Shown: piece after piece, positions 17,029 through 33,807 of the stretch
Numbering within the stretch: the first letter of the stretch is position 1
How the letters are laid out: each line of letters opens with the position of its first letter
Source of the DNA: a virus
Lineage: Duplodnaviria; Heunggongvirae; Uroviricota; Caudoviricetes
Strand: one strand, 5' to 3'
Virus record (IMG/VR): IMGVR_UViG_2695420701_000007
Span: 1 to 33,807 of that record
DNA: 33,807 nucleotides
The notes under the pieces: model-generated
What the model saw: only the letters and a program-made list of their open reading frames with translations
What the model was told of the DNA's origin: nothing
Databases searched by the model: none
Translations under genes and position numbers: made by a program

Positions 17029-17304
17029 ATGGCGGGTGTGATGAAAATTGAATGTCCGGCGTGTCACTGCCGGGCGGCTATACGCAAAACTGCATGGCAG
17101 GATGACGCAAAAACGCTGGCGGTAGTTTATTGCACCTGCACTAATTCTGACTGCAATATGCGTTTTTCGCTCAATCTTTCCGATCTTCGCGTGATTTCAC
17201 CCAGTGACCTGCAAACTGATGGTGTCGTTAAAGCATTGCTCCAGCGCCTTAAACCAGACGAAAGGCAAATGGCACTGGATATTCTGCTCAGTGATGGCGC
17301 GTAA
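17029..17304 (+). CDS. Ogr/Delta-family zinc-finger late-gene activator (start 17029 or 17041)
   Basis: The sequence MKIECPACHCRAAIRKT…YCTCTNSDCNMRF gives the CxxC…CxC-x4-C pattern of P2 Ogr / P4 Delta. Confidence 0.8.
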   Translation: MAGVMKIECPACHCRAAIRKTAWQDDAKTLAVVYCTCTNSDCNMRFSLNLSDLRVISPSDLQTDGVVKALLQRLKPDERQMALDILLSDGA

Positions 17305-17438
17305 GTGCCATTCTGTGGGGCGGTGGATCTTCCGCTTCCTCGCCCTGACAGACTCACCGCTATGCGGTTCGCTAATCAGGGGCTGCGGCGAGCGGTTTTG
17401 CACAATATGATCCAGTACAGCAACAGAGAGATTTAGTT

Positions 17439-17957
17439 TTATTCGAAGCTGGCAAGAATCTGTTCTCGAACAGAAGATTTCATCGTTAACCCACGATCCA
17501 GGAAAAATTGGAAATGCATTAAGGCTTGTTGTTTGTGGATAAATCTCCTGCGCACAGCCTCCTGGAGTAGCCCTCCGTGGCGGGCGGCTTTTACACCGCG
17601 TTCCGCACACGTTTTATAAACCGCATTATCCGCCGAAAGACATGTTGCATCATGTATTCTCGCGTTAACAACGCAGCTTATGTCCGCATACTTCAATGCT
17701 CTCCTGCGATTTTTTATCTCAGCCATTTCAATAAAATGTTCAGGTTCGTAATCATTGGTGAAATTGTATGGAAGTTGCAGGCGTGTAAGCTGTTCCTGAA
17801 CATCAAGATTGTATTTAGCTTTTAGTTCCTCGCAGACATAGGGGTCAATCCACACACCACCCGGGTAAATTTGCCAGATAAGATCTAAGCATTTACCTTC
17901 GTAAAAATCAGACAGTACATTCGTATCGATAACACATCTGGGGCATTCAAACGGCAT
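17439..17957 (-). CDS. PIN-domain nuclease (putative toxin/effector, 172 aa)
   Basis: Start set at ATG 17957 (AGGAGG 9 nt upstream), overlapping the upstream gene by 11 nt. It has the PIN hallmarks CVIDTNVLSDF (first Asp), VCEELK (Glu) and ATCLSADNAVYKTCAERG (distal Asp), plus a helical C-terminal extension. Confidence 0.75.
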   Translation of the reverse strand: MPFECPRCVIDTNVLSDFYEGKCLDLIWQIYPGGVWIDPYVCEELKAKYNLDVQEQLTRLQLPYNFTNDYEPEHFIEMAEIKNRRRALKYADISCVVNARIHDATCLSADNAVYKTCAERGVKAARHGGLLQEAVRRRFIHKQQALMHFQFFLDRGLTMKSSVREQILASFE

Positions 17958-19092
17958 CCTCTCCGGCCTCCTGTTCGTCGTACCATTCATCCAGAAGATT
18001 GCTGAGAGCTTTTCTGTCTAATTCTAAAAGTTCAGATATGAAGGTTTCCGACGCGGAACCGGCTTCCCATGCTTTACGCGATAAGACGGTTAGGCGACCT
18101 TTATAATTTAGTGCTTCCCTTATGGGATTTGGCTCGTGTCTCTTCCAGCCTTTACGATTGGCGGTTGCCCATAGGTATCTAGTGTTTTGCTGATTAATTA
18201 AATTACATTTACTAAGACGCTCAATGATGCAAGTGGCTGATACTCTGAAAATGCTTTTTAGTCTAAGGACGGTTTCCTCATACGCCCATCCACCACCTTG
18301 CATGACGAATTGTTTTCGCAACGCGCTTTCTGGTACCAAAAAACAAGCAGCAAAGTGATTAGCAACTTTTTCTTCCGGTGAAATTGCTTTGCCATTAGTT
18401 TTATAGCTTTTAGCAGGGCCATCATACTCATCACGGTGGAAGATAAGATGAGCATATTCATGGCAAATACTGAAGATTTGACGTTCTATTGAAATGCTGT
18501 CGTGAACATTTACATAAATCGCGGTACCGTATTTGTTCGAAAACGCAGAAAATCCGAATACCATCCCTTTATCGGTTTCCTCGCGATTGAACGGGATCAC
18601 TCGAATATCCGATGCTTCCAAAATGGCTACAATGTCACCAACGCAAGTAGCGTTTCCCATACCAAGACGGAAACGTTCTTCCATAGCCTTATCTTCGACT
18701 CTTCGCAAATCTTCTGCTTTGGCGGTAAAAACAGGCATTGAGTTAGGAAGATCTTCTGGCAAATTAGCATCAGCAGCTTCCTCAATTGCATTGATATTTT
18801 TTAACTTTTCAATCAACTCATTGCGAAGTCTGGCATCCAACAAATCCGGACTATCTGCTCGCATTGCAAAACGAAACTCGCCATCATCTTGCTCATAAAA
18901 ATACCCGACAGGCTTATCGAAAATCTTGCAGAGCATGATGAGTTGGGTAACGCTTGGGACGCCTAGCGCCTGCTCAAACTTACTGTAGGTTTGACGAACA
19001 ACACCGATCGCATCTGCGACGGCGCTTGCACTCATTCCTGCGTCGTTTCTGGCCTGAACCAAGCGTTCTGCTATACGCTGTTGAATGTTCAT
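17947..19092 (-). CDS. HTH-XRE / ImmA-IrrE (M78-type) zinc metallopeptidase fusion protein (381 aa)
   Basis: N-terminal XRE helix-turn-helix (RLVQARNDAGMSASAVADAIGVVRQTYSKFEQALGVPSVTQLIMLCKIF). HExxH motif (SICHEYAHLIFH) followed by EEKVANHFAACFLVP, the usual third-ligand segment of ImmA/IrrE peptidases. Helical C-terminal ~80 aa with an acidic tail. Confidence 0.85.
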   Translation of the reverse strand: MNIQQRIAERLVQARNDAGMSASAVADAIGVVRQTYSKFEQALGVPSVTQLIMLCKIFDKPVGYFYEQDDGEFRFAMRADSPDLLDARLRNELIEKLKNINAIEEAADANLPEDLPNSMPVFTAKAEDLRRVEDKAMEERFRLGMGNATCVGDIVAILEASDIRVIPFNREETDKGMVFGFSAFSNKYGTAIYVNVHDSISIERQIFSICHEYAHLIFHRDEYDGPAKSYKTNGKAISPEEKVANHFAACFLVPESALRKQFVMQGGGWAYEETVLRLKSIFRVSATCIIERLSKCNLINQQNTRYLWATANRKGWKRHEPNPIREALNYKGRLTVLSRKAWEAGSASETFISELLELDRKALSNLLDEWYDEQEAGEDAV

Positions 19093-19145
19093 ACGTCACC
19101 TGAATTTAACAATGGTGGCTCTTATGGGTTTAGATTGGTTAATTA

Positions 19146-19174
19146 TTACTAACATTATGAATGGAGAGTTGCAA
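19146..19174 (-). promoter_or_regulatory. Candidate sigma70 promoter for the XRE-ImmA/PIN cassette
   Basis: On the minus strand: TTGCAA (19174-19169), a 17-nt spacer, then TAGTAA (19151-19146), about 50 nt upstream of the ATG at 19092. Confidence 0.4.
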
Positions 19175-19178
19175 AAAT

Positions 19179-19193
19179 CATAATTAAATTATG
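19179..19193. promoter_or_regulatory. 15-bp perfect palindrome (candidate operator) abutting the -35
   Basis: CATAATT-A-AATTATG has perfect 7-bp arms and lies 4 nt upstream of the candidate -35. Confidence 0.35.
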
Positions 19194-19246
19194 CAAATTT
19201 CATGGAGTGTGATGTGGTGTGGGTTCACACTCTCTGCTGATTACAT

Positions 19247-19267
19247 CCAGGGCGGTTTCCGCCCTGG
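19247..19267. other. GC-rich hairpin separating the early operon from the cassette
   Basis: CCAGGGCGG-TTT-CCGCCCTGG has a 9-bp perfect stem. There is no clear U-tract on either strand, so it is not a canonical intrinsic terminator. Confidence 0.4.
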
Positions 19268-19376
19268 CTCTGCTTACTCAGGAAATAACGCCCGGATATT
19301 TCCGGCCATCTGACTGGTTATCTGTGCGGTTGGTACTGGCTGTGGCGTGGGCGTTCTGCCCTGTTTGCGCCCTGAC

Positions 19377-19709
19377 CTATGCAATCCGCGCCGGATTCAT
19401 ATGGCACATGTTGTGTCTTTTTTCTGCATGGTAATGAGCTTTGTTCTCGTTAAACGGTAACACCTCATTCAGCCCGGCACTTCTGAAATCAGCGTGTAAT
19501 TGCTCCAGTACTGTTTCTTTATCAGCACCCGTTAATTCGAGATAATCCCAGAGGCTGGCGCATAAACCACAGTTTCGCGAAAATATTCTGCCTGGATTTG
19601 CTCCGTTTTTCAGCCACAAATCATAAGTAATATAAAATCCGTGAAGTTGTTGCCTGATACTTTCTTTGATTTCCTGCGCTGGCACGGTGCCTGGTAATTG
19701 CTCTCTCAT
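19377..19709 (-). CDS. Hypothetical protein (110 aa), last gene of the early operon
   Basis: Start set at ATG 19709, which overlaps the upstream stop (ATGA). No family recognised. Confidence 0.6.
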   Translation of the reverse strand: MREQLPGTVPAQEIKESIRQQLHGFYITYDLWLKNGANPGRIFSRNCGLCASLWDYLELTGADKETVLEQLHADFRSAGLNEVLPFNENKAHYHAEKRHNMCHMNPARIA

Positions 19710-20137
19710 TGTGAATCTCTCCTGTGTTGTGCCGGTCTGGCGCATGAATGGCGCTGCGGTAAAAAGACCCTTTGCGTCAGTGCGGCCTTGCGATTGACGG
19801 CAGTCAGCGTTCTGGCCAGCGCGACATTGTGTTTGCGGGTCTGCTCTTCGTGGTACTTCTGCATGATTTTCCCGGCCGGCGTGAGTGGTTCCGGCTCTTC
19901 CGGTGAACGGCGCGGACGAACGGCAACTATCCAGCTCTGATATTCACTGCCCGGTCGCCTGTTAAGTATGTCGGTGATGGTGGTTGTGGTGGTGCGATCG
20001 GGGCTGGCCACCGTGATTTCCAGTTCGTCCCCGGGCTGTGGTCTTGTGGCTACGCCTCTCAGTGTCATGGCTGGCGTGCGCTGGCGCATAACGGCGTCGA
20101 ACTGCTGACGCTGCATGGTGCAGTGAAATCGCGTCAT
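19706..20137 (-). CDS. Hypothetical protein (143 aa)
   Basis: The ATG overlaps the gpA-like stop (ATGA). The N-terminus is weakly ASCH-like (…QQFDAVMRQRTPAMTLRG…PGDELEI); this is not secure. Confidence 0.55.
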   Translation of the reverse strand: MTRFHCTMQRQQFDAVMRQRTPAMTLRGVATRPQPGDELEITVASPDRTTTTTITDILNRRPGSEYQSWIVAVRPRRSPEEPEPLTPAGKIMQKYHEEQTRKHNVALARTLTAVNRKAALTQRVFLPQRHSCARPAQHRRDSQ

Positions 20138-22626
20138 GATCTTACCTCCGCTGACGACTCCTGTGTGATGACGATGCGGCGGGTTGTGGCGCTCCAGTAC
20201 GCGATACGCCCGTCGCCCGGGCGAACGCGGGCACCGTTACTCACGGAAATAATGGCTGCGTCAGGCAGCTGCACACCCAGCGCGTCGAGTTCGCGGGTGA
20301 TTTGTGCGATGGTCGTGGTGTCGACAGGCACGACAACCTCCACCCTGACAGGGGTGTCTGATGCTGGTCTGGTGTTATTTTGTCCGGTATCCGTGGCGGG
20401 CGGCTGATTTTTAAGCTGTCTGATGAGCTGTTTCCGCTCGTAATGGCTCAATCCCTGCAACCATTGTGTCAGGCCATTTTCCGGAAGTGTCAGACGTTTC
20501 TCCTGCTGCCTGTTTTCTGTGCCGGTTCCGGCTGTTTTTTCGTCGCCGGGACAGTTATTGCCACGAGTCCAAGGGGCGGCAGGGCCGCCCTGAAGGTCAA
20601 AACCATTTTCGCGGGCGCTGTCTTCCGCTTCCGGTTTACGTCTTACCAGCTTCCAGTTGTCCGGATGCGTGCACACACGGGAGGATTCCCCGATGAGTGG
20701 CGACCAGATCCCGTAAATCTGTACGCTCTGTTCGCCGTAATCGTTCAGCTCATCTGCGAGGTCGTAGGCGGTGCGAATCAGGTAGTCCTTACGTGGAACA
20801 AGTACGCCGCCCTGTTTCTCTATGTAGGTGGCAAAACACCCGGCATCAGCGGCAGCAAGAACCGCATCCATTGCGTCATCCTTCAGCCGTTGCGGGCCTT
20901 CCGGGTTGCGTGCCATCTGGCTGGCAAGGCGGCGCAGTTCACGCCATACCTGACGGGAGGGGATGCCAAAGAACTGGAACTGGCGGACCCGGTGAAGGCG
21001 CGCCCAGCCGATGGCGCGTTCCACGCTTTCTGCCATCGTCTTTCCTGATTCGTCGTCGATGCGCGGTTTGCCTGTTTTCGGGTCAATGCCATCCACGGCG
21101 TGGCTGTCCAGGTTCTTTCCGATGTAGGTGGCGATATAGCTGGTCGGCGTACCTTTCGAACCGTCGACGTACTCCGCCTTAAAGCGCGGAGTTATGTCAT
21201 CGCCCAGCTCGTGGCGGTCTTCACGAATGGCAATATCGCGGGCGATGGTCACGATGCTGTCGATTTCTTCAGGATGTGCAAAGACCATCATATGCCAGTG
21301 CACCGTGCCGTCATGGTGAGGCTCCACCGTGCGGATGCCATACCAGCGCAGGCCCTTGCGGTCCAGTCTGTTACGAACGGCTTTAAAAAAAGTGTTAACC
21401 AGATAATCACTGGAATCGCGCATGGTAGCCCCGTTCCATTTGGGGTTCGGATGACCGTTCTCCGTTGTTGCGTGGTATTTTGACGGGCAGGTGACAGTCA
21501 GAAACACCGCTTTGTCGCCACGGGATTCGGCTATAAGTTCCGCCCCTTTCATGGTGGCCATCATTTCTGCCTTACGGTGAACCGGGTTACTTACTCCCGC
21601 GTAATACACTGTCTCGAGATCAATCGTGAACCCGTCTTCATTTTCCAGCATGAAACTTTTCAGGAAATCGCGTGTTTTCTCGCGCTGTGCGCGAAACTCA
21701 CTTAACGCGTCCTGGCTCAGATAGGGCGATGTTTTTCTGGAAACCAGACAGGCGGCGCGGAGTTGTTCTTCTCTCCACTCGCAACGTAAAAGCCACAGTT
21801 TGCGTTTCCACCAGTCCGCACAGGTCAGGCGAAGGATTGCGCCCGGCAGCAGTTCCGTGTCCGGTTCGTTCTTGCGGTCTTTGTCTGTTGTCAGCGCGTC
21901 ATAATGTGGAGGCATGGCGTGCAGGTGTAGCGCCATGCGGGCCAGCATCTGATACGCCTTCAGTGCCACCTCCATGGTCAGCTCGCCATCTCTGGCACCG
22001 AAACCATCACAGAGTGTTTCAAAGGAGCTGCTGAACATTGCCGCCGTCATGGTGCCCAGCGTCTGTATCTGGTGCTTGTTAAGCTGCGGCAGGTACAGCA
22101 AATCGTCCAGGCGTTCGCGTCCGGCAAGGGCGCGATAACCCGGTGTCAGCCAGCGGCTGTCGGTGCGGTCCAGTCGTTCGAATATTTTGCGCAGGGTTCC
22201 GCGCGCGTAGCCCTCTGATGGTCGACTCTTTTTGCCTTTCTGGCGGTCAGATTCCTGCTTCTTACGTAAAAAAGAGAGGCGGCGGCTCAGAGGTTCACGC
22301 AGATAAACAGGTAGCGCCTTTAGTGTGACAAATGCACGGGCCACCGGGTCTTGTTCTGTTGCCTGGCGCTTGCTGATGATGCTTTGTGTTACCTTCTCGC
22401 GCCGTTCGTCCTCATCGAGGGCGACCATGAGTTTTTTACCCATGTCTGACTGCACAAAAAAGGCTTCTTCTTCCGCCTCCCTGACTTCCTGTGCTTTCAG
22501 ATCTGCTTCCTGGTAGTAGCGTATGGCCTGTTGCAACGGGGTTTCAGGCGTAGGCTGATACTTCGCAAATGTGGCTGGGTCAATGGCCTGCCGTGGTTCG
22601 TTCCAGTCCCAGGTAAATTCACTCAT
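20134..22626 (-). CDS. Replication initiation endonuclease (P2 gpA-like, 830 aa)
   Basis: HUH-type motif (TVEPHHDGTVHWHMMVF). Size and position match P2 gpA. Start set at ATG 22626, which overlaps the upstream stop (ATGA). Confidence 0.85.
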   Translation of the reverse strand: MSEFTWDWNEPRQAIDPATFAKYQPTPETPLQQAIRYYQEADLKAQEVREAEEEAFFVQSDMGKKLMVALDEDERREKVTQSIISKRQATEQDPVARAFVTLKALPVYLREPLSRRLSFLRKKQESDRQKGKKSRPSEGYARGTLRKIFERLDRTDSRWLTPGYRALAGRERLDDLLYLPQLNKHQIQTLGTMTAAMFSSSFETLCDGFGARDGELTMEVALKAYQMLARMALHLHAMPPHYDALTTDKDRKNEPDTELLPGAILRLTCADWWKRKLWLLRCEWREEQLRAACLVSRKTSPYLSQDALSEFRAQREKTRDFLKSFMLENEDGFTIDLETVYYAGVSNPVHRKAEMMATMKGAELIAESRGDKAVFLTVTCPSKYHATTENGHPNPKWNGATMRDSSDYLVNTFFKAVRNRLDRKGLRWYGIRTVEPHHDGTVHWHMMVFAHPEEIDSIVTIARDIAIREDRHELGDDITPRFKAEYVDGSKGTPTSYIATYIGKNLDSHAVDGIDPKTGKPRIDDESGKTMAESVERAIGWARLHRVRQFQFFGIPSRQVWRELRRLASQMARNPEGPQRLKDDAMDAVLAAADAGCFATYIEKQGGVLVPRKDYLIRTAYDLADELNDYGEQSVQIYGIWSPLIGESSRVCTHPDNWKLVRRKPEAEDSARENGFDLQGGPAAPWTRGNNCPGDEKTAGTGTENRQQEKRLTLPENGLTQWLQGLSHYERKQLIRQLKNQPPATDTGQNNTRPASDTPVRVEVVVPVDTTTIAQITRELDALGVQLPDAAIISVSNGARVRPGDGRIAYWSATTRRIVITQESSAEVRS

Positions 22627-23315: not shown

Positions 23316-23490
23316 GATGTGGCCTCTATGTGTGTAAGTTTTGAAAACTCACCATCCAGAGCTGCGAAACTGTGGGTGGCGAGACGTACGAGGTTCGCAG
23401 TACCGGCAAACATAGAACCCGGCCCGACCGAAGTCGGCCCCGTACGCCCCACCATAATTCGTGTGCGAAAAAGATGTGGCGATACAGTAC

Positions 23491-23618
23491 GCACAAAAAA
23501 ACCGCTGGCGCGGTTGTGCGCTATGTTTGTCAGCGGGCTGCGAAACCCGGCACCCGTTTTATGAGGTGCAGCGGAAATGTAACCTGACTGATTGCGACAT
23601 GGCAAGCGGTTTTTTTGT
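23491..23618. repeat. Perfect 15-bp inverted repeat flanking 98 bp
   Basis: CACAAAAAAACCGCT at 23491-23505 and its exact reverse complement AGCGGTTTTTTTGTG at 23604-23618. Confidence 0.9.
23492..23516 (-). terminator. Intrinsic terminator-like hairpin inside the early operon
   Basis: The minus strand reads AACCGC-GCCA-GCGGTT followed by a T run (7 T in total). Confidence 0.5.
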
Positions 23619-26970: not shown

Positions 26971-27156
26971 CTACGTCTTCTTTGTGCTGAATGAATGCGT
27001 TGTATGCATCCCGTTTTTTTTCTGGCGACGTCTGTCGCGTATTTCCCGCCATGTATCAATAAGTGTCAGTATGCAGATGGCAAAAAACATTGCGGCTGCA
27101 ATCAGTGTGATAACAAATAACGACTCCGGTACACTGAATGAATAACTGAAATTCAT
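26971..27156 (-). CDS. Small single-pass membrane protein (61 aa)
   Basis: Hydrophobic core (LFVITLIAAAMFFAICILTLI) followed by a basic tail (REIRDRRRQKK). Confidence 0.5.
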   Translation of the reverse strand: MNFSYSFSVPESLFVITLIAAAMFFAICILTLIDTWREIRDRRRQKKNGMHTTHSFSTKKT

Positions 27157-27161
27157 CGTGA

Positions 27162-27404
27162 TTACTCCGTAATTATTGCGGGTTCGGGAACCATGCCATC
27201 CGTTAATTGTTTCGCCATCCGGTTAAGTTCTTTAAGGTCCTCGCTGGCTCCCGTATCTTTTGAACAAAACAGGGTGTTGCGGACGCTGAATATTCCGCAC
27301 TTCATTACTTCGAAGTGTGTTTTTCTGGCGCGGGGATTAATTTCGTTATCGAAGTAATATCCCTGCAGAAATTCGTTTACCTGTTCTGCTGTGTGTTTTC
27401 TCAT
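27162..27404 (-). CDS. Hypothetical protein (80 aa)
   Basis: ORF in the early operon. AT-rich. No family recognised. Confidence 0.5.
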   Translation of the reverse strand: MRKHTAEQVNEFLQGYYFDNEINPRARKTHFEVMKCGIFSVRNTLFCSKDTGASEDLKELNRMAKQLTDGMVPEPAIITE

Positions 27405-27445
27405 AACGGAGTCCTCGTTAAAAATAACCGGTGATAAACCCGCTG

Positions 27446-27796
27446 TTATAACTCAGCCTGTTTAATAAAATTTTCTCCGTAAAGAAGGCGATCAACTGTG
27501 CGTAGCGCTTCGTACAACGTGAAATCCTGCCCGAACTGATTGTCGCCGCAGCTCAGAGCAAAAATGCGGTTTCCGGTAAACGGATTGCGCGGGTATTTGT
27601 GGACCACTATTCCAGCTTTCTCAATCATCCAGGTATGCTCGCCAATTTGTTTTACTGTATGGCCATCTGGTGTTGCGTGCGTCTCGTTCAGGTTATAGCG
27701 ACTGTTACTACGTGATGCACTGGTAGCGACGTGGTGTACATGGCGTTCTACGCCATTACGAAATTTGGAGTATGGATTATTAGTGTTTTTTTTCAT
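27446..27796 (-). CDS. Hypothetical protein (116 aa)
   Basis: ORF in the early operon. No family recognised. Confidence 0.5.
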   Translation of the reverse strand: MKKNTNNPYSKFRNGVERHVHHVATSASRSNSRYNLNETHATPDGHTVKQIGEHTWMIEKAGIVVHKYPRNPFTGNRIFALSCGDNQFGQDFTLYEALRTVDRLLYGENFIKQAEL

Positions 27797-27817
27797 GATG
27801 ATGCTCTGTTCATTGTT

Positions 27818-28021
27818 TTAGCTGTTAGCCAAAGCGTCTTTTAACATCGCCACAAGGTTTACTTCAGGCTTTTCCATTTTGGCGCGTTTGGGGCGGATAA
27901 TAATTCGACCGTCAGCCAACATCTTTTTGCATGTATTAAGAGGGATACCTGTTATCTCTGCATATTTCTGCAGGGATACATAGGGGGCATTCACATTGAT
28001 ATTGATGGTTATACCTGACAT
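27818..28021 (-). CDS. Cox/excisionase-like small HTH protein (67 aa)
   Basis: YVSLQKYAEITGIPLNTCKKMLADGRIIIRP parallels the P2 Cox segment IPYQEFAKLIGKSTGAVRRMIDKGKLPV (from memory). It is the second gene of the early operon. Confidence 0.5.
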   Translation of the reverse strand: MSGITININVNAPYVSLQKYAEITGIPLNTCKKMLADGRIIIRPKRAKMEKPEVNLVAMLKDALANS

Positions 28022-28037
28022 CCCACTAACCTCCTGA

Positions 28038-28244
28038 TCAGGAAGATTTGTTTTGTTCTTTCTGGGTTAGCTCTAGGCCGCGAAGGAAGATCATGCGCGC
28101 CATGTTAGAGGATGAGCGTTGTTCTTTAGCTGCCATCTCATCAATAAAGGCGCGCTCCTCCGCTGACAGTCGAAGTGCCAGTCTTTGACCTGTGGCGGTG
28201 TTACGCGGAATGCGTGACTTGGTGTCGTGACTAACTTGATTCAT
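28038..28244 (-). CDS. Ribbon-helix-helix (Arc/CopG-like) regulator, first early gene (68 aa)
   Basis: RLALRLSAEERAFIDEMAAKEQRSSSNMARMIFLRGLE fits the RHH beta-alpha-alpha pattern. The gene is divergent from the repressor gene. Confidence 0.6.
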   Translation of the reverse strand: MNQVSHDTKSRIPRNTATGQRLALRLSAEERAFIDEMAAKEQRSSSNMARMIFLRGLELTQKEQNKSS

Positions 28245-28281
28245 AGTGGTACATTGTGATCATCTAATGGTTCGTGAAATT

Positions 28282-28310
28282 ACTTTAGGGAACAAAACTT
28301 CCTATGTCAA
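28282..28310 (-). promoter_or_regulatory. Early lytic promoter (near-consensus)
   Basis: On the minus strand: TTGACA (28310-28305), exactly 17 nt of spacer, then TAAAGT (28287-28282). The -35 overlaps the repressor ATG (28304-28306). Confidence 0.6.
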
Positions 28311-28717
28311 CAGAAAAAGAGGAACTAAGCGTCATTATTGGCCGTCGATTACGGGAGGAGCGAGAGAAAATTGGCATGACCCAAGATGATATGGCGTCGA
28401 TTTTTGAAGTTTCTACAAAGACTTGGGGGAAGTATGAAAGAGGGGTGACTACACCGGATGCAGTTATGTTGAATCTCTTGGGAGGGCGCTGCGGAGTAGA
28501 TGTCTATTACATACTTTCTGGTAGTCGTGCACATGGCATCCCTAATGCTACTGAAGATGAGATTGAGCTAATTAAAATATATCGTTCTGCACCTTTGGCT
28601 GTTAAGGCGGCAGCTTTGGCAGCCTTGACTGCTGGTAGTTTGTCTCTAGGTACAATAAGAGCTTCTGGCAAAGGCCATCGTATTGCAGGTCGTGACTATA
28701 ACGAAACGAAGGGTTAG
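28304..28717 (+). CDS. CI-like immunity repressor (XRE HTH, 137 aa)
   Basis: HTH segment (IGRRLREEREKIGMTQDDMASIFEVSTKTWGKYERGVTTPDAVMLNLL). Divergent from the early operon and reads toward int, as P2 C does. Confidence 0.75.
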   Translation: MSTEKEELSVIIGRRLREEREKIGMTQDDMASIFEVSTKTWGKYERGVTTPDAVMLNLLGGRCGVDVYYILSGSRAHGIPNATEDEIELIKIYRSAPLAVKAAALAALTAGSLSLGTIRASGKGHRIAGRDYNETKG

Positions 28718-28735
28718 TGATAGTAGGGAGGTGAC

Positions 28736-29383
28736 ATGGCTGTCAACTCAAACGGTTCAGACAATCGCGTTTCTGGGCGTGATTACCACGAAAAGAACAT
28801 TCGGATAGAGCGGTATGATGGTCGTCATACAGTCAACATTGCAATCCCTTCCTGTGGGGCTGATGAGCGCCCATTAGTCAAGGCTCAGCGCCATCAACTG
28901 AAGTTGTTGGTTGATAAGATTGTTGATGTCAGCAAGGAAGAATCGTTTGTTGTCTGGCGTAAACTTCATGCTGAAATCGGTGTTGATAGCATCGATAAGA
29001 TGACGGTGAATCAGTATCCAACCGCAATTAGCTTCCTCAATGCGATGCTTGACCGACATAAAGAGCGCGACGCCTGCAAATCACTTGTAAGTCTCCTTCT
29101 TCGCAATAGTGAGAATAATGAAGCTAGACAAAAACTTCTTCGATATTGTCATATCAATTTTGGAACAGGGCGCTTAAATGATCTTACTCGCTCTCAGCTT
29201 CAGATGGCTCTTTCATGGTTAGATCAGCAAACAACAGACTGTGAAAATAATTTGCCCTCAGATAATTCTAAATTTGTCGATAAACAATCGCGATTAGTGT
29301 TTCAGCAAATAATTAAAACATATCCAAAAGAAATGGGGGTATGTTTTGTTATTGGTGTTTTATTAGGCATGATTCTTTTCTGA
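28736..29383 (+). CDS. Membrane-anchored protein of unknown function co-transcribed with the repressor (215 aa)
   Basis: GGGAGG RBS 18 nt after the repressor stop. C-terminal TM helix (GVCFVIGVLLGMILF). The N-terminus repeats the repressor tail motif (RVSGRDYHE versus RIAGRDYNE). Confidence 0.65.
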   Translation: MAVNSNGSDNRVSGRDYHEKNIRIERYDGRHTVNIAIPSCGADERPLVKAQRHQLKLLVDKIVDVSKEESFVVWRKLHAEIGVDSIDKMTVNQYPTAISFLNAMLDRHKERDACKSLVSLLLRNSENNEARQKLLRYCHINFGTGRLNDLTRSQLQMALSWLDQQTTDCENNLPSDNSKFVDKQSRLVFQQIIKTYPKEMGVCFVIGVLLGMILF

Positions 29384-29588
29384 TAGATCGTTGTTGGAGA
29401 AATCAATTATGGCAAAAGCTTGCTTTAACGACTTTGAAAGAAATAAAAAAGATAAATTAAGCGAGCTGACAAAGGTGAGATAAGGGGGAGTGCAACTAGT
29501 AATGTAAAAAATGGTGTGAGTTACTTGTCATAGTCTTAAAGTGAAGTAATTCCTTGTTCACTAGGAAGTTCAAAGAGGTAAATGAATT

Positions 29589-29846
29589 ATGGTAACTAAT
29601 CCGCAAATTCCATTGACTGGCTTATATGTATCCAAAGTTAATCCATCTAATCGTATAGTTGTTACTGATGTTCATATTGTTTAGGATGATGACGATGAGC
29701 CAGGAGAGCTTCCTTTCTATTTGGTTACTTTTGTAAATGAGGGGGATGAGGATGATATGTTGGCTCCTTCTTGGGAGCTAGATCCTGAGGAATGGGAGCA
29801 GTTAGTTGATGAAGAGCGCTTTATGCGCGTGGAGCAACCATCTTAA
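29589..29846 (+). pseudogene. Small acidic ORF interrupted by an in-frame amber codon (29682-29684)
   Basis: MVTNPQIPLTGLYVSKVNPSNRIVVTDVHIV-TAG-DDDDEPGELPFYLVTFVNEGDEDDMLAPSWELDPEEWEQLVDEERFMRVEQPS-TAA. I checked the frame codon by codon. Confidence 0.5.
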
Positions 29847-29872
29847 TTTATCCTTGGTGTGCACTTTTTAAG

Positions 29873-30874
29873 ATGTCTGTTCGTAAATTACCTACTGGCA
29901 AATGGCTCTGTGAATGCTACCCCTACGGAGCAGCAGGAAAACGCATTCGTAAACAGTTTGTTACTAAGGGTGAGGCGCTCTCTTATGAGCGCCGTTTAAT
30001 GAACAGTAATTTGGGGAGCGAGTTTCAGGATGGTTCTGGCCCCCGCCTTTCCGAGTTGGTTGCTCGCTGGTTTGAGATGTACGGTAAGACACTGTCTTCC
30101 GGTGAAGAGCGAAGGGCTAAACTTGAGGCGATTTGCTCCCGGTTGGGGGATCCGCTTGCTTCTCAATTTGATAAAAACATGTTTGCCACCTACAGGGAAC
30201 GGCGATTATCAGGTGAATGGAATCCAAAGGGGAAGAGGAAGCTTAGCGAAGCAACCGTTAATCGTGAGCAGTCATATCTACATGCTGTTTTTGCCGAACT
30301 GAAGCGCCTTGGGGAGTGGTCTGGTGAAAACCCCTTAACTGGCATTCGCAAATTTCGTGAGGAAGAAAAGGAACTGGCGTTTCTGTATGTAGATGAGATT
30401 GAACGCCTTCTGATTGCGTGTGATGAGTCACGGAATAAAGATTTGGGGGTTGTTGTCCGTATTGGGCTTGCGACTGGTGCTCGGTGGAGTGAAGCAGAAG
30501 GATTAAAGCAATCTCAAGTACTGCCCGGTCGAATCACATTTGTTAAAACTAAAGGAAAGAAGAACCGCACTGTACCGATTTCACCTCAATTGCAGGCTAT
30601 GCTTCCTAAAAAACGAGGAGCGCTATTTTCACCATGTTATGAGGCTTTTGACGCTGCAATTAAGAGAGCGAAGATCGAGCTTCCTGATGGGCAATTAACT
30701 CATGTGCTACGTCACACGTTTGCCAGTCATTTTATGATGCGGGGCGGAAATATTCTTGTGTTGCAAAAAATACTGGGGCATAGCGATATAAAAATGACTA
30801 TGCGTTATGCGCATTTTGCTCCAGGTCATTTAGAGGCTGCTGTTGAATTGAACCCTTTTGACAATAGAGGGTAA
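29873..30874 (+). CDS. int: Tyrosine integrase (333 aa)
   Basis: ARWSE… and HVLRHTFASHFMMRGGNILVLQKILGHSDIKMTMRYAHF give the R…HxxR…Y catalytic signature. The gene abuts the att site. Confidence 0.92.
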   Translation: MSVRKLPTGKWLCECYPYGAAGKRIRKQFVTKGEALSYERRLMNSNLGSEFQDGSGPRLSELVARWFEMYGKTLSSGEERRAKLEAICSRLGDPLASQFDKNMFATYRERRLSGEWNPKGKRKLSEATVNREQSYLHAVFAELKRLGEWSGENPLTGIRKFREEEKELAFLYVDEIERLLIACDESRNKDLGVVVRIGLATGARWSEAEGLKQSQVLPGRITFVKTKGKKNRTVPISPQLQAMLPKKRGALFSPCYEAFDAAIKRAKIELPDGQLTHVLRHTFASHFMMRGGNILVLQKILGHSDIKMTMRYAHFAPGHLEAAVELNPFDNRG

Positions 30875-30901
30875 AAAGTGGCGATAAAAAGTGACAATAG
30901 A
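30859..30901 (+). repeat. Direct repeats, candidate Int arm-type sites
   Basis: TGACAATAGA occurs at 30859-30868 and 30892-30901, with a variant GTGGCGATAAA at 30878-30888. Confidence 0.45.
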
Positions 30902-30941
30902 TTCAAATGGCGTTGTATAGAGCTATTTTCAAAGTTAATAA

Positions 30942-30959
30942 AATCATAAGGTTATGATT
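30942..30959. repeat. 8-bp perfect inverted repeat in the att arm
   Basis: AATCATAA-GG-TTATGATT. Confidence 0.5.
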
Positions 30960-30980
30960 TATAAATGGTGGTTGATAGTT

Positions 30981-31035
30981 TTTAAAATCCCTCGGCGTTC
31001 GCGCTGTGCGGGTTCAAGTCCCGCTCCGGGTACCA
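30981..31035 (+). tRNA. leuZ: 3' 55 nt of tRNA-Leu(UAA) (leuZ-type) = attR core; not a complete tRNA gene
   Basis: TTTAAAATCCCTCGGCGTTCGCGCTGTGCGGGTTCAAGTCCCGCTCCGGGTACCA matches leuZ from the anticodon loop to the CCA end (from memory). The upstream sequence lacks the acceptor 5' strand (GCCCGGA) and the D-arm. Confidence 0.8.
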
Positions 31036-33711: not shown

Positions 33712-33807
33712 CTGATGAATCCCCTAATGATTTTGGTAAAAATCATTAAGTTAAGGTGGATACACATCTTGTCATATGATCAAATGGTTTCGCGAAAAAT
33801 CAATAAT
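33712..33807 (+). mobile_element. IS10 outside end, first 96 bp (element continues beyond the window)
   Basis: CTGATGAATCCCCTAATGATTTTGGTAAAAATCATTAAGTTAAGGTGGATACACATCTTGTCATATGATCAAATGGTTTCGCGAAAAATCAATAAT matches the IS10/Tn10 terminus as I remember it, including the GATC in the transposase promoter region. Confidence 0.85.

Follow-up and report, generated by a model that had tools for sequence, protein, structure and literature searches.

RosmerTA systems are two-gene operons, carried on phages and prophages, that defend against phages. Their antitoxin, the zinc peptidase RmrA, joins an N-terminal XRE-type helix-turn-helix (HTH) to an ImmA/M78 peptidase, and the rmrA gene cannot be deleted (Millman et al. 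2022, preprint) and is essential in transposon sequencing (Tn-seq). RmrA is paired with different toxins, and the ImmA node is associated with PIN-like domains (Ernits et al. 2023). The characterised toxins (RmrT) depolarise the membrane (Kita), target DnaN (RipA of the RipAB pair of Streptococcus pneumoniae) or have an unknown function; neutralisation of the toxin by RmrA or RipB works in trans, with expression from foreign promoters, and in several species ClpX or ClpP becomes essential when a RosmerTA toxin is present. The window analysed here, the whole 33,807 nucleotides of the IMG/VR record IMGVR_UViG_2695420701_000007, comprises a P2-like (Peduoviridae) Escherichia coli prophage in which a cassette of two overlapping minus-strand genes lies between the replication endonuclease gene and the portal gene. 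Gene 1 (17947-19092) encodes a 381-residue fusion of an XRE-HTH to a Peptidase_M78 (ImmA/IrrE) domain, an RmrA-like putative antitoxin and autoregulator, and gene 2 (17439-17957) encodes a 172-residue PIN-like nuclease, the putative toxin. The cassette is genuine: an intact, mobile, RosmerTA-like module whose effector is a PIN protein. It is of a kind that had been predicted and catalogued before, and it represents no new class of system.

Predictions of an HTH-peptidase fusion lying upstream of a COG2405/DUF3368-type PIN gene date from 2009, 2017 and 2023. Dozens of COG2856-HTH fusions next to PIN genes were reported by Makarova 2009, and Matelska 2017 placed PIN-like genes of the COG2405/DUF3368 and DUF4411 groups downstream of HTH-DUF955 fusions and also proposed self-cleavage of the HTH. 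The cassette resembles these predicted "three-component" toxin-antitoxin (TA) systems in that the fused gene, with its HExxH motif retained, is placed directly upstream of and co-oriented with a PIN-like gene, bearing in mind that the earlier reports are computational predictions and that the DUF3368 label of gene 2 comes from precomputed annotation. PD-lambda-2 (Vassallo et al. 2022), which protects E. coli against phages, also contains an Xre-HTH fused to a peptidase, but it has three genes, its HigB-like partner is encoded upstream and the peptidase fusion is the toxic part. The cassette itself is listed in the supplementary tables of Rousset et al. 2022 as "Peptidase_M78/HTH_31/HTH_3 + hypothetical"; according to the main text of that study it is not among the validated systems, and the PIN gene was left as "hypothetical". 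RefSeq labels the pair only as "helix-turn-helix protein" and "PIN domain protein". Because of the predictions of Makarova 2009, Matelska 2017 and Ernits 2023 and of the RmrA matches given below, the architecture is a described one and its antitoxin family has a name, so that the word "undescribed", which was used of it in the preliminary description, has to be withdrawn.

Fourteen RmrA models of the PADLOC collection match the gene 1 product, and the best of them, PDLC03947, aligns over residues 4-321 (83% of the protein; profile positions 9-315 of 383) with an E-value of 3.2e-35. The protein is not an orthologue of RipB (spr1629), scoring 86.2 bits against the corresponding NCBIfam equivalog model NF052239, whose cut-off is 335. 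Pfam recognises HTH_3 at residues 13-65 (E=6e-8) and Peptidase_M78 at residues 193-294 (E=6e-12), and the AlphaFold model (predicted local distance difference test, pLDDT, 88.4) consists of an HTH, a low-confidence linker, two long helices, the M78 core (residues 154-296 in the model) and a helical C-terminus. On the minus strand the HTH DNA-binding domain (aa 1-66) is encoded at 18895-19092, the zinc-peptidase core (aa 151-296) at 18205-18642, and the C-terminal helical domain (aa 297-381) at 17950-18204. The HEYAH motif (residues 211-215; 18448-18462) and E241 lie within the core. In an alignment of 57 homologues with identities of 20-92%, all carry H211, E212 and E241, and 56 of the 57 carry H215. 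The three modules first proposed for this protein, an XRE HTH, a zinc peptidase core and a helical C-terminal domain, are upheld, and its active site is intact.

The HTH and M78 folds are also those of ImmR and ImmA in ICEBs1, DdrO and IrrE in Deinococcus, and CapH and CapP in CBASS, with the HExxH...E residues retained, and the fusion combines counterparts of a CapH/ImmR/DdrO-type HTH and a CapP/IrrE-type protease, that is, both halves of a known switch. The two parts form one chain in the gene 1 product, whereas they are separate proteins in those systems; the alignment of the protease core is limited to about 157-175 residues, and the controlled gene here is a co-translated nuclease rather than a separate operon. 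IrrE cuts DdrO between L106 and R107 (PMC7907104). In the fusion protein an arginine, R78, is found in 56 of the 57 homologues and is preceded by a hydrophobic residue. The M77-R78 pair (18859-18864, minus strand) lies in the linker behind the HTH, where residues 71-90 of the model have block pLDDT values of 51-75. Since R78 is nearly invariant and is placed in a low-confidence linker, it may, by analogy with the DdrO cut, be a self-cleavage or docking site.

The C-terminal helices span residues 301-380 of the model and form the least conserved part of the family. The PADLOC RmrA alignments mostly stop at about residue 321, short of this domain, and both features would fit a partner-specific binding domain, which makes it the candidate toxin-binding part of the protein. 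Structure comparison gave no fold match of this helical C-terminus to the C-terminal domains of the ImmR/ImmA, DdrO/IrrE and CapH/CapP proteins. An acidic tail had been pointed out at its end, and such a tail is present (...EQEAGEDAV), but its nucleotides also provide the Shine-Dalgarno sequence of the PIN gene and encode the Met-Pro-Phe with which the PIN protein starts. The same correspondence of DAV to MPF recurs in the Chromatiaceae homologues (DAVH/MPFT). Part of the conservation of the tail thus reflects translational coupling, and its standing as a functional motif in its own right was lowered, since its final codons double as the ribosome-binding site and ATG of gene 2. A 393-residue protein in the PDB (9vzy, "HTH cro/C1-type domain-containing protein") is a full-length homologue, whose alignment covers the whole profile of the fusion-protein family (E=1e-37). 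A literature search turned up no publication for this entry, and it is absent from the fold libraries that were searched.

The gene 2 product matches the Pfam PIN family (PF01850) with an E-value of 4e-5, just over the cut-off, and its AlphaFold (AF2) model has a pLDDT of 93.7. Foldseek matches this model with probability 1.0 to archaeal PIN proteins, VapC toxins and protein-only RNase P, the VapC matches (VapC4, VapC-5, VapC15 and VapC21) having template modelling (TM) scores of 0.5-0.69. Among homologues D11, E44 and D92 (172-residue numbering) are invariant and D110 is nearly so; the assignment of gene 2 as a PIN nuclease with the expected acidic residues is thereby upheld. The precomputed label PF11848 (DUF3368, the COG2405 group) is attached to 23 of 28 gene 2 homologues and to every neighbouring PIN gene, but our Pfam-A hmmscan of the gene 2 product returned PF01850 alone, so that the DUF3368 label rests on precomputed annotation. 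A search of the PDB at E<=1 with the PIN profile gave eight chains, all marginal PIN matches, and 2mdt, the COG2405 representative of Matelska 2017, was not among them. No NCBIfam or PHROG family was found for the protein, and an exhaustive phmmer search of 1.84 billion representatives returned only 10 clusters. The resemblance to VapBC lies in a PIN toxin with four acidic residues and a VapC-like fold, an antitoxin gene that comes first and overlapping genes; the partner, however, is a 381-residue HTH-protease fusion with an M78 core in place of a small VapB, and the PIN protein has about 45 extra helical residues at its C-terminus. In the model these are three helices beyond the VapC core (residues 127-172; window 17439-17579). 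The Foldseek matches to protein-only RNase P (HARP) hint at a structured RNA, possibly tRNA, as substrate.

The two genes are translationally coupled. The longest open reading frame (ORF) of gene 2 in the ORF list of the window runs from 17990 to 17439 and has 183 codons, but its homologues are uniformly about 172 residues long and RefSeq annotates 519 nt, so the real start is the ATG at 17957. This start gives an overlap with gene 1 of 11 nt (ATGCCGTTTGA; 17947-17957, minus strand), preceded by AGGAGG at 17967-17972. The GC content of the cassette is 0.44 compared with 0.53-0.55 for the flanking phage genes, and an Rfam scan placed no RNA family inside it. As to the preliminary description, its overlapping minus-strand genes with an AGGAGG ribosome-binding site hold with this corrected start, as does the AT-richness of the cassette relative to its flanks, and the self-contained character that it gave to the pair is confirmed by the behaviour of the homologues. 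Seven independent contexts, in which the fusion protein is 23% to 84% identical, are informative, and in all seven a 164-175-residue DUF3368/PIN gene follows immediately, overlapping or at most 16 nt away. In Gibbsiella, within a decayed P2-like remnant, and in Rahnella, within an ordinary chromosomal neighbourhood, the same fusion gene precedes the PIN gene with the same 11-nt overlap. In Chromatiaceae and metagenomes, at identities of 41%, 33%, 28%, 24% and 23%, a PF11848/DUF3368 gene of 164-173 codons lies directly downstream, and the paired genes of distant homologues overlap by 4-17 nt. On an eighth homologue contig the fusion gene is followed, after 11 nt, by an ORF that the end of the contig cuts short, so that the partner is not identifiable there. 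The distant homologues have as neighbours an MmeI-type restriction-modification (RM) gene with a ParS/MbcA antitoxin gene, a patatin gene, a Bil system and a type I HsdR gene. Coupling of the two genes is therefore a conserved trait, retained where the fusion protein is only about 23% identical and seen within prophages as well as elsewhere, often beside other defence genes.

The position of the cassette was read from the start as the variable defence-cargo slot of P2-type phages, and this is correct. The region between the replication endonuclease and portal genes is a published defence hotspot of P2, the gpA-gpQ interval that holds old and tin (Rousset et al. 2022, PMC9122126; also the Vassallo preprint), in which 1,650 arrangements were recorded among 18,150 loci (PMC9122126). 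In relatives of the prophage the same slot contains other cargo, namely memP, an 807-nt unknown gene, a ClpX-zinc-finger/XF1762 set and ead/Ea22-like genes. The cassette occurs in 32 of 5,426 complete E. coli genomes, and the related parP flank in 503. Its mobility is evident from a block of 1,967 bp (17400-19366) that is 98% identical, by blastn of the window against L015, to a second Peduoviridae prophage lineage (L015, L025), while the flanks of the block show no blastn similarity between the two lineages, implying that the module was exchanged as a 1.97-kb piece. According to the annotation of L015 and L025, the second lineage has its integration site beside pdxB, ParM-ParP among its genes and a 106-residue repressor unrelated to that of the window.

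With a probability that we put at roughly 0.6, the cassette is a RosmerTA-type two-gene toxin-antitoxin and abortive-infection module carried as cargo in the P2-like prophage hotspot. A toxin-antitoxin and abortive-infection reading was already favoured in the preliminary description, and the match to the RmrA family, the conserved pairing and the defence hotspot make it the most likely one. A single, translationally coupled transcript, started at a weak promoter belonging to the cassette, would yield both proteins. During lysogeny the fusion protein would repress the operon through its HTH and would also keep the PIN protein, presumably toxic when free, harmless at the protein level. Neutralisation at this level is favoured because coupled translation makes PIN whenever the fusion is made and because RmrA and RipB act on toxins expressed from foreign promoters. 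Binding, with the poorly conserved helical C-terminus as the contact, is its most likely form. Proteolytic processing aided by ClpXP is a live alternative, given that ClpX or ClpP becomes essential with RosmerTA toxins. When another phage infects the cell or a stress signal arrives, the protease would be switched, the fusion protein removed, or both, possibly through a cut in the linker that follows the HTH, at the conserved hydrophobic-Arg78 site, and the freed PIN protein would cut RNA and stop growth and phage production.

Several observations weigh against this reading. The PIN protein and 18 homologues match no RmrT model in PADLOC; the nearest family there is a candidate, PDC-S70, with weak matches to 12 of 19 family members (best E=1.4e-7). 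Automated tools would therefore probably call half a system, the antitoxin being recognised and the toxin not. The preliminary description had named a score as an already characterised system as a refuting result, and this came true for one half of the pair. RmrT being by definition a heterogeneous group, the missing match lowers automated calling more than functional kinship. Against Pfam PIN the score is barely above threshold, and tblastn of the PIN protein against 50,697 phage and 72,556 plasmid records gave no match. The cassette is rare in E. coli at the frequency given above. A literature search for experiments on HTH-M78 and DUF3368-PIN pairs, this cassette included, found predictions only. 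Within RosmerTA itself some homologues give little or no protection, and AlphaFold could not predict the complex of the Kita pair, so that direct binding is only presumed even there. The toxicity of the Xre-peptidase of PD-lambda-2 is a reminder that the assignment of roles by analogy can fail.

A more specific proposal makes the fusion protein a single-chain ImmA/ImmR (CapP/CapH) switch and itself the phage sensor. An M78 domain activated by a cue from a phage or from damage would cut its own chain at hydrophobic-Arg78, either in cis or in trans within a dimer, thereby derepressing the operon and releasing a PIN protein that has an additional helical module and may target tRNA. We hold this proposal only tentatively and regard it as rather unlikely.

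The rival that survives best makes the cassette an addiction or stabilisation module only, a selfish TA pair that would punish a cell for losing the prophage or the cargo block and would exclude no phage. The layout is that of a classical TA pair, with the antitoxin first and the genes coupled; prophage lineages exchange the cassette as a discrete piece of 1.97 kb, and in the second lineage the cassette adjoins partition-type genes (ParM/ParP); the pair is also found in plain chromosomal contexts, as in Rahnella, and some RosmerTA homologues show little defence. However, experiments support the slot as a defence hotspot, a defence role has been validated for the RmrA family and the distant homologues lie beside RM, Bil and patatin genes, and addiction and defence are in any case not mutually exclusive, so that addiction by itself appears to us improbable.

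Somewhat less probable still is a purely transcriptional switch like CapH/CapP or ImmR/ImmA, housed in one chain, in which self-cleavage triggered by DNA damage or infection would derepress the operon and in which PIN would undergo no neutralisation at the protein level. It accounts for the structural match of HTH and protease to CapH/ImmR/DdrO and CapP/IrrE and for the near-invariant Arg78 in a disordered linker, reminiscent of the L106/R107 cut in DdrO, and it is the mechanism proposed for HTH-DUF955 fusions by Matelska 2017 and Ernits 2023. The 11-nt overlap and the shared transcript speak against it, since the nuclease is made whenever the repressor is made and an active nuclease would then need post-translational control. 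RmrA and RipB, moreover, neutralise toxins made from heterologous promoters, and the C-terminal helical domain would be left without a role.

That the roles are reversed, with a harmful peptidase fusion restrained or directed by the small PIN-like protein as in the PD-lambda-2B/A pair, seems very unlikely. The Xre-peptidase of PD-lambda-2 is indeed toxic alone and rescued by its HigB-like partner, and the NetFlax authors (Ernits et al. 2023) warn that toxin and antitoxin labels in the ImmA zone are uncertain. The four PIN catalytic acidic residues are nevertheless kept across the family, which suggests that the protein is an active enzyme rather than just an inhibitor; the fusion gene comes first here, unlike in PD-lambda-2, and rmrA is the gene that cannot be deleted in RosmerTA. 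The alternative offered in the preliminary description, that the protease is an antirepressor cleaving the 137-residue XRE repressor of the prophage itself (28304-28717) for induction with PIN as an addiction partner, draws on the cleavage of separate XRE repressors by ImmA, IrrE and CapP and on 29% identity between the two HTHs over 48 residues, but it is scarcely credible and was rejected on distribution grounds, because the cassette travels between prophages with unrelated repressors (the 98%-identical copy in the pdxB-integrated prophage faces a 106-residue repressor whose similarity is limited to 14 of 48 HTH residues), is present in only 32 of about 503 related prophages, has homologous pairs in non-prophage contexts and carries an HTH fused to its own protease.

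The identification means that a P2-type hotspot pair under generic RefSeq labels is a RosmerTA-like module, and since none of the RmrT models in PADLOC covers its toxin type, defence-annotation pipelines probably undercount the PIN branch. RosmerTA is widespread, and an E. coli pair with an assayable nuclease toxin and a conserved linker motif is a convenient model for the role of the RmrA protease. If the single-chain switch proved true, it would explain for the first time, in mechanistic terms, what RosmerTA antitoxins do with their protease and would define a PIN-effector branch that current defence finders miss.

The spacer upstream of gene 1, described earlier as 285 bp, exists but is 284 bp long and composite. 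Its cassette-specific part is an AT-rich region of about 154 bp (19093-19246, minus strand) that contains the Shine-Dalgarno sequence AGGTGA (19096-19101), the block CCACCATTGTTAA and a -10-like CATAAT (19154-19159). Alignment with the upstream regions of Gibbsiella and Rahnella shows that both CCACCATTGTTAA and CATAAT are kept there. The promoter-like elements attributed to the spacer hold in part: a standard consensus promoter scan gave no sigma-70 site upstream of gene 1, but a relaxed scan and the conservation across genera suggest CATAAT as a -10 element with a weak -35. The palindrome noted in the spacer is a perfect 9-bp GC-rich hairpin, CCAGGGCGG-AAA-CCGCCCTGG (19247-19267), recovered by the inverted-repeat search. 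It lies directly 3' of a parP remnant and is common to prophage L012, which carries different cargo (blastn match 19248-19366), so it is more likely a terminator, probably of the upstream parP/early operon, than a cassette element, and its candidacy as operator was rejected.

The parP remnant itself is the 3' end, about 93 nt, of a plasmid partitioning/stability gene (19274-19366, minus strand), lies inside the supposed spacer and is carried along with the cassette. It matches the parP 3' ends of prophages L013 and L008 by blastn, and RefSeq calls it a pseudogene in the identical prophage of strain CFSAN029787 (NZ_CP011416), which implies that the cassette was imported from a prophage lineage carrying ParM-ParP. 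In that strain the prophage, otherwise identical, has an IS600 insertion (19678-20834) at a point equivalent to about 19410 of the window, just upstream of the cassette region, and the window copy is free of IS600. In the Xuanwuvirus/P88-like prophages (L008-L015) ParM/ParP (StbA/Plasmid_stab_B) partition genes adjoin the replication endonuclease gene, and in their place the window has two ORFs of 122 and 143 residues (19377-20137) that match only PHROGs of unknown function. On the other side of the cassette an Ogr/Delta-like zinc-finger gene (17029-17304, plus strand) stands between the portal gene and the PIN gene, convergent with the latter; the second cassette-carrying lineage has no annotated gene in this interval.

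Elsewhere in the prophage a second low-GC stretch (0.37-0.45) is found at 27000-31000, around the repressor and integrase genes. Between these two genes a 215-residue ORF (28736-29383) belongs to PHROG 5825, of unknown function, and gave no PADLOC match. It may mark another cargo slot, by analogy with the cI-int hotspot of Vibrio P2-like phages. No tRNA gene lies within the window, and integration at leuZ, as named in the preliminary description, is thus a presumption. In the early region (23372-23569, minus strand) Rfam identifies a C4 antisense RNA (81.8 bits) beside the Hfq-binding small RNA isrK (69 bits), and at the right end (33757-33807, minus strand) there is a truncated match to RNA-OUT, the antisense RNA of IS10, suggesting that an IS10-type element begins there.

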